A DNA stretch of 64,000 nt from Escherichia coli. GTDB taxonomy: Bacteria > Pseudomonadota > Gammaproteobacteria > Enterobacterales > Enterobacteriaceae. The translations under genes and the position numbers were made by a program. The notes below the pieces were generated by a model. The model was not told where the DNA came from and searched no databases. It was given only the letters and a program-made list of their open reading frames with translations. Of the stretch, positions 35,628 through 37,038 are shown one piece after another (position 1 is the first letter of the stretch; each line of letters opens with the position of its first letter). The stretch lies in the NCBI RefSeq assembly GCF_041248615.1, contig NZ_CP158426.1. One strand, written 5' to 3'.

Positions 35628-37038
35628 TCAGGCTTTCACATCACTCACTGCACCGACCGGAATATCAGCATGAACAGGCTCGGGCGGTACTTTGCGATAT
35701 TTATCCAGCAGATGGATCTGGATCCTGCGCAGCGTGTCACCATTGAGGCGATAGAAACGGAAGTAGAGAATCAGCGTTACCATGAAAAACAGAGTCGGTA
35801 GAGCAATCATAATAAACTGCATACCTAATAGGGCTTGCGTAGACTGTTCAACATTCGGTACATAGCCAATCATCCCTAACACAACCGCAATGAAAAAAGC
35901 CGCAAAGGCTGAACCGCCCTTCACCACCATAGTCTGCACGGAGTAAGCGATGCTTTCACAGCGTACGTGCAGTTTATATTCACCGTAATCAACGGTATCT
36001 GCCACCATGATGACCTGTAATACCCAGAAAAGCGCCGTTCCCACATTCAGCAAGATACCCGCAATCACAATGAGGACGACGTTGTGATAGCTCATTAATG
36101 CCATTAACAGGAGAACACCACAGCTTAACACCGGAAGAATAGATGCTCCGGCCCATAAAATGCGTCGGGATAATGATTTAACTAAGCGTGGGAAGAATAC
36201 TAACGTCACCAGGTTAGCAGCTCCCGCATACGACAGATAATAGGGGAACAAATCCGCATCACCGATAACATATGAGAAATAATAGATAGCAAAGCCGGTA
36301 ATAATATTGCTGGCTACATTATAAGCAAGAGCCATACCCAAGAGGCATGAAAGCTGATCGTTTTTATAAATAGGCTTTAAGTGTCAGATGGCTTCCTTCA
36401 GCAGACGGTTGATTGTCTGACGAAAAGACTTCATGCACATTGCGCAGAGTGATGATGGTTGAAACAATAAAAAAGGCGATCAGTACCAGAGTGAACATCT
36501 GAAAGCCAAATCCCCGATCGCCACCGCCGACATAATTAACAAATGGTAGCGTCACACCTGCCGTAACAAAGCCCGCCAGACTGGCAAAAAAACGCGGATA
36601 AGGAACCAGTTGTTCGCGCTCACGTTTATCGAGCGTTATGGTTGGAACCAGCGACCAGAAGGGAATATCCATAATGGTGTAAGTCATGCCCCAGAGGATG
36701 TAGGTCACGCAAACAAAGACAATCTGAGTAGTACCTTCAAACAGATGCGCACTAAAGAGGAGAAATAAGATTACAGAGTTTGCCAACGTACCGATCAGGA
36801 TCCAGGGTTTGAACTTACCCCATCGCGATCGCGTAGCATTTACAATCCATCCCATAATCGGATCGTTAATAGCATCCCAGATCCTCGCCACCAGAAACAA
36901 AGTACCGACCAAACCCACAGACAGCCCGACGACATCGGTGTAGTAATACATGAGGTACATATACACAATGCCGATCGCAAAATCCTTCCCGAACGCTCCA
37001 AATCCATAACTGAGTTTTGTAGTCATTGAAATGCTCAT
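35628..37038 (-). pseudogene. melB: Melibiose:cation symporter MelB, split by a frameshift near 36364-36386 into an N-terminal 224-codon ORF and a C-terminal ORF
   Basis: ORF 36364..37062 ends …[19 protein letters not shown]; ORF 35628..36341 continues MelB in another frame (…[24 protein letters not shown]…). Both halves are recognisable MelB; about 4 codons appear lost at the junction versus the 473-aa protein I recall. Confidence 0.75.

Follow-up and report, generated by a model that had tools for sequence, protein, structure and literature searches.

The question raised by the mel locus of this Escherichia coli DNA is whether melB, the gene for the dedicated melibiose permease, is genuinely broken and, if so, what would be left of melibiose uptake. 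The window, that is, the whole stretch of 64,000 bases that was analysed, is byte-identical to positions 4835546-4899545 of NZ_LT599825.1, the chromosomal record of E. coli NRZ14408, a clinical strain with KPC-2 and mcr-1 that was isolated in Germany. The E. coli isolate that carries a plasmid of this accession series, NZ_LT599827, has been referred to as ST362 (PMC11252172). The gene order is fumB-yjdF-melB-melA-melR-adiA; melB stands second in melAB, which is divergent from melR. Locus and synteny are the same as those of K-12 MelB, a Na+/H+/Li+:melibiose symporter of 473 amino acids (GPH family, MFS_2).

A reading of the letters without database searches (the sequence-only reading) had claimed that melB is split by a frameshift, and alignment with melB of K-12 MG1655, the check that it had proposed, bears this out. 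Homology to MelB and the GPH:cation symporters extends across the whole gene (nt 1-1422, 98.7% nucleotide identity), and PF13347 (MFS_2, Pfam) is assigned to both of the called MelB fragments. The alignment contains a single gap of exactly 11 bp, and the window gene (35628..37038, minus strand) is 1,411 bp long compared with the normal 1,422 bp. The deletion junction lies between 36373 and 36372 on the minus strand, where the sequence ATCGTTGCGCT, corresponding to nt 667-677 of K-12 melB, is absent. Here, K-12 reads AAAGCC-ATCGTTGCGCT-AATTTAT and the window reads AAAGCC-TATTTAT; in the longer alignment, AAAGCC ATCGTTGCGCT AATTTATAAAA of K-12 stands against AAAGCC TATTTATAAAA of the window, in which the junction string of melB is CTGACACTTAAAGCCTATTTATAAAAACGATCAG. 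The codons hit are those of I223-V224-A225-L226, minus one base. The earlier estimate of a deletion of roughly 11 bp that removes about four codons (IVAL) was thus accurate, as was the MelB reference sequence (…HLTLKAIVALIYKNDQ…) on which it had been based. No equivalent placement of the 11-bp gap exists even one base to the left or right, so the deletion is flanked by neither microhomology nor a direct repeat. Microhomology- or repeat-mediated deletion and direct-repeat slippage were considered as possible routes to the lesion and are ruled out by this unslidable junction.

Two consecutive open reading frames on the same strand, both MelB-like, were found at 36364..37062/37038 and 35628..36341, as had been described from the letters together with the end of the upstream frame and the opening of the downstream frame at 36383. 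From the normal start, the first of these (36364..37038, minus strand) encodes MelB residues 1-222, comprising helices I-VI with the beginning of the middle loop, followed by Y-L-stop; its end reads ...LTLKAYL*, with the TAA at 36366-36364, and translation covers 224 codons with the stop at codon 225. The +1 frame is open from 36383 through the normal MelB C terminus (35628..36383, minus strand); in it, four junk codons (HLKP) precede K-12 residues 227-473. Apart from the frameshifted residues at the junction, I352T is the sole amino acid change relative to K-12 MelB. K-12 melB is unbroken, whereas the window melB consists of a 224-codon N-terminal fragment and a C-terminal part in the +1 frame; an uninterrupted reading frame of ∼473 amino acids with all 12 transmembrane helices is lacking, and with it a full-length 12-helix product. 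The length of the indel is not a multiple of three, and the TAA follows two codons past the junction, as in a frameshift pseudogene. Given that the frame stops at codon 225 and that the remainder lies in the +1 frame, the locus is a melB pseudogene and not a functional member of the MelB group.

The lesion was already known, since RefSeq/PGAP annotates the gene in NZ_LT599825.1 as a pseudogene labelled 'melibiose:sodium transporter MelB, frameshifted'. The distribution of the junction was assessed with a 91-bp junction-spanning probe, which was searched against 5,426 complete E. coli genomes. The probe matched 4,129 of these; the exact junction was present at full length in only two, NRZ14408 and isolate 362 (Hospital La Paz, Madrid), and a 102-bp version containing the 11 bp was found in 4,093. 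The deletion is therefore rare among complete genomes (2/5,426). Isolate 362 is 100% identical to the window across 23.6 kb of shared flanks, and its melB is likewise annotated as 'frameshifted'. The junction string was also verified in GCA_014863425.1 and in one JGI contig. Gene finders start the N-terminal fragment at Met5, resulting in a 220-aa protein that ends in KAYL, an ending that occurs only with the 11-bp deletion. This exact 220-aa fragment was found on 390 public contigs (NCBI, ENA, Logan, and JGI), including those of Broad KTE isolates such as KTE78, and is indexed in 626 blocks of the collection; the same gene neighbourhood was observed in 24 of the 24 carrier contigs that were read. 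Given that an identical junction recurs in independent assemblies (two complete genomes and the JGI contig, with the truncated protein on 390 contigs), the melB lesion is real, and the deletion is genuine and inherited within one lineage, of ST362 type. The 11-bp junction provides a clean clonal marker of that lineage.

The closest complete genome without the deletion is that of MS 69-1, which encodes an intact 473-aa MelB (WP_000028114.1). The MelA, MelR, YjdF, and FumB proteins of MS 69-1 are identical to those of the window (MelA, WP_000986625.1, and MelR, WP_001090776.1, are common to both), but its melB has the 11 bp and thereby a full-length product, unlike the window melB. Compared base by base, the two melB genes differ only by the 11 bp. 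Given that the MS 69-1 gene is otherwise identical, the deletion is young and the pseudogene undecayed. Flanking DNA in the window (24000-48900) differs from MS 69-1 at 62 sites over 20.3 kb, a density at which about 4 differences would be expected in the 1.4 kb of melB, where none was observed besides the deletion. The presence of 62 differences in the flanks and none in melB suggests that divergence around the locus is patchy, probably as the result of recombination tracts.

Other strains carry lesions close to the same site. In strain EM20-18-50 (NZ_CP063467.1, L017 4047-5376), an IS2-type element is flanked by duplicated melB sequence (5 bp, nt 660-664), and CP127265.1 (L007 ∼168-1498) contains an IS2-type insertion with a 5-bp duplication at melB nt 713-717; both insertions begin TGGATTTGCCCCTATATTTCCAGACA. 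In strain 135 (NZ_CP080260.1, L003 3068-3354), a chicken isolate, melB is interrupted by a 287-bp internal fragment of iucA (aerobactin synthase) that is 100% identical to iucA. A 5-bp duplication (TTATA) is found here at melB nt 681-685, and the insertion site lies 4 bp downstream of where the window melB has lost its 11 bp. No mobile element was recognisable at this iucA fragment, which could be genuine, as an inserted piece of a gene, or a chimera created by the assembly. Counting the 11-bp deletion, the AT-rich segment of melB that encodes the middle loop carries four independent lesions in a span of about 60 bp, and this segment may be a local insertion hot spot. An IS-excision footprint was also considered as the origin of the 11-bp deletion; the IS2-type element of EM20-18-50, two bases away, is suggestive, but no evidence connects it with the deletion, and the idea was set aside as speculation. 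Other strains have melB alleles that are altered elsewhere in the gene, one by a nonsense mutation and one by 1-bp indels.

Natural loss of melB is commonplace. Touchon 2009 (PMC2617782 Table 5) includes the gene in a list of functions that phylogroup B2 specifically lacks, and the 1,291 of the 5,426 complete genomes (about 24%) that gave no melB megablast match fit this published absence. In Salmonella Typhimurium ST313 lineage 2, melibiose use was lost stepwise via SNPs in melR and melB, of which the melR SNP is the critical lesion, and the loss was read by the authors as negative selection (PMC6333337). Together with the IS2-type and nonsense alleles, these cases belong to the same outcome class as the window melB, in which the dedicated melibiose permease is lost or impaired. 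The lesions themselves differ: the gene is absent from B2 strains and a melR SNP is critical in ST313, whereas the window melB carries a blunt 11-bp deletion with melR and melA untouched. The melB of the window is an ordinary, lineage-specific frameshift pseudogene and is unsurprising. Loss of the melibiose permease is a well-documented trend among lineages of E. coli and Salmonella, of which this gene is one more example, with little import beyond strain description.

The consequence for the protein can be considered in relation to the known structure of MelB (PMC8437787, PMC10942615). The cytoplasmic middle loop (loop 6-7) extends from around residue 205 and includes an amphipathic helix, in which L220 and I223 belong to an inter-bundle hydrophobic patch. 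A sharp turn occurs at N230, transmembrane helix VII runs from D231, and less than 25% of transport remains when residues at positions 230-233 are replaced by Cys (PMC8437787, PMC10942615). The break in the window melB falls in the middle-loop helix, between the two six-helix bundles. A frameshift inside this segment would halt translation from the normal start after 224 codons, such that the predicted product would comprise the N-terminal six-helix bundle only and the C-terminal bundle would be stranded in the +1 frame.

The only canonical in-frame starts available to the C-terminal part are a TTG at 36341 (L237) and an ATG at 36335 (M239), both inside helix VII. Given that initiation is possible only at these codons, a C-terminal half would lack N230-G238 and, with these residues, both the turn and the beginning of helix VII. 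Analysis of anti-SD pairing across the locus revealed no SD at proper spacing before the C-terminal half, with predicted values of 0.3 kcal/mol for L237 and −3.0 kcal/mol for M239, where a GGGU abuts the ATG; for comparison, values of −7.4 kcal/mol were obtained for melA and −0.2 and −1.9 kcal/mol for the native melB start. Since the native start is likewise without an SD match, the weak SD before the C-terminal half is not decisive against its translation, and low-level reinitiation is conceivable. On public contigs, gene finders predict a 235-aa product from M239; 232-aa (TTG start) and 237-aa products were absent when looked up in the protein collection. As the C-terminal bundle lacks both a ribosome-binding site and a start codon ahead of helix VII, it would be unlikely to contribute to a functional Na+/melibiose symporter. 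In summary, the sequence data argue strongly for a recent, clonally inherited 11-bp deletion, and a functional MelB symporter is very probably not made.

Several other explanations of the interrupted gene were weighed. The record is a long-read assembly, in which frameshifts are frequently errors, and the junction is confined to 2 of the 5,426 complete genomes; the real chromosome might accordingly be supposed to contain the 11 bp and an intact melB. Platform errors are, however, typically homopolymer indels of 1-2 bp, and loss of 11 bp from non-repetitive sequence is atypical of them. The identical junction also occurs in an unrelated complete assembly from Spain, in the JGI contig, and in GCA_014863425.1, and the 390 contigs with the diagnostic truncated protein derive from four archives and include Broad KTE isolates. 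Given such recurrence in independent assemblies, an artefact is scarcely credible and was rejected. Programmed +1 ribosomal frameshifting would accept the deletion as real and restore a MelB of nearly full length, short of four residues in the middle loop. In prfB, the stop codon lies close to the +1 shift site, and the window melB is superficially similar in that the shift needed is +1 and the TAA stands two codons past the junction. The prfB-type combination of slippery codon, adjacent stop, and upstream SD-like stimulator is nevertheless lacking: the codons GCC TAT TTA TAA give no +1 re-pairing (CCT, ATT, TAT), the upstream SD-like stimulator is absent, and no slippery +1 site or recoding signal was found on reading the sequence at the junction. 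Moreover, the site was made by a recent deletion and not by selection. Given that the pre-stop codons offer no +1 re-pairing, programmed frameshifting is not a credible explanation, and its probability is vanishingly small.

A different possibility is that residues 1-222 and a separately initiated C-terminal half assemble into an active two-chain MelB. Expression of lacY in two segments gives a functional permease (Bibi and Kaback 1990, PMID 2190220), and LacY, likewise a 12-helix MFS sugar symporter, is cut in its central cytoplasmic loop in the N6/C6 split; the inter-domain loop is the one place at which split MFS permeases such as LacY are known to tolerate a cut. The break in the window melB lies in this loop, between the six-helix bundles, and an ATG of the C-terminal frame occurs 28 nt after the stop, such that termination-reinitiation is conceivable. 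Both halves are unchanged relative to the closest intact allele besides the 11 bp, and the allele occurs on hundreds of contigs. By contrast with the window melB, however, split LacY was engineered with complete halves and proper starts; here the first starts of the second half (L237 and M239) already lie inside helix VII, and a ribosome-binding site is missing, so that two complete halves, each with its own start, are not present. Reinitiation would yield a half without N230-G238, in a protein in which Cys replacements at 230-233 alone already impair transport so severely, and the GGGU that abuts the ATG (−3.0 kcal/mol) is not a usable SD. The lack of further decay is equally well explained by the youth of the deletion, and no report of a split MelB was found in the literature searched. 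An active two-chain MelB is therefore very unlikely. If it did exist, the reinitiated, shortened C-terminal half and the N6 half would form a natural two-gene transporter, working or of altered specificity, and a natural split permease would explain why both halves persist without further change across hundreds of isolates. It could also be proposed that the deletion is real and inactivating but was positively selected in an extraintestinal, hospital-associated lineage and is not a neutral accident. The repeated loss of melB (the B2 absence and the quarter or so of complete genomes without a match), the independent nonsense, 1-bp indel, IS, and foreign-fragment lesions in other strains, the stepwise loss in Salmonella ST313 with its interpretation as negative selection (PMC6333337), and the spread of the allele to at least 390 contigs are all consistent with selection. 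Such spread may, however, be pure hitch-hiking in a successful clone, and melA and melR are without sign of follow-up decay. On balance, positive selection appears unlikely.

The inactivating, clonally inherited deletion leaves the rest of the operon in place. The alpha-galactosidase gene melA (37141..38496, minus strand; 451 aa) is intact, with three substitutions relative to K-12, and all 102 bp of the melA-melB spacer (37039..37140, minus strand) are identical to K-12. The divergent melR/melAB regulatory region (38497..38778) is 282 bp long, as in K-12, and differs by 7 substitutions with no indel. The gene for the AraC-family activator, melR (38779..39687, plus strand; 302 aa), is intact by annotation and translation. 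The claim of the sequence-only reading that melA and melR are intact is in agreement with these data, both genes being of full length and annotated as encoding intact proteins. No polar effect of the melB lesion is expected, given that melB is distal in melAB and that the next gene, yjdF, is convergent.

LacY and MelB both transport melibiose (PMC6091025), and for this reason the MelB test host DW2 is deleted for both melB and lacZY (PMC6091025). In the NRZ14408 genome, lacI, lacZ, lacY, and lacA are all intact. Any remaining use of melibiose would have to rely on entry via LacY, the gene for which is present, and the strain may still ferment melibiose by this route. It had been suggested from the letters that the strain should be melibiose-negative or dependent on another permease such as LacY, and, as far as the gene content indicates, this hedged phenotype is the right way to put the prediction. 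NRZ14408 and its relatives are predicted to be without Na+-coupled melibiose uptake, and their melibiose fermentation should depend on LacY, a dependence that would be useful for interpreting biochemical typing.

Three further features of the window were noted. A copy of the IS3-family element ISEc31 (27340-28597; 1,258 bp, TG...CA ends, 3-bp duplication GAT) lies in the interval from yjdI to dcuS, about 150 bp ahead of where dcuS starts. Given that the site is empty in both isolate 362 and MS 69-1, this insertion is specific to NRZ14408, and it might alter dcuSR expression. In addition, an IS1B copy (4296-5942 region; transposase CDS 4380-5077) interrupts yjeJ, the remnants of which are a 69-bp 5′ fragment (4296-4364) and a separately annotated 816-bp ORF (5127-5942). 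Finally, pmrB (47127-48227) of this colistin-resistant strain encodes a PmrB with S141 and M189, compared with N141 and T189 in MS 69-1.
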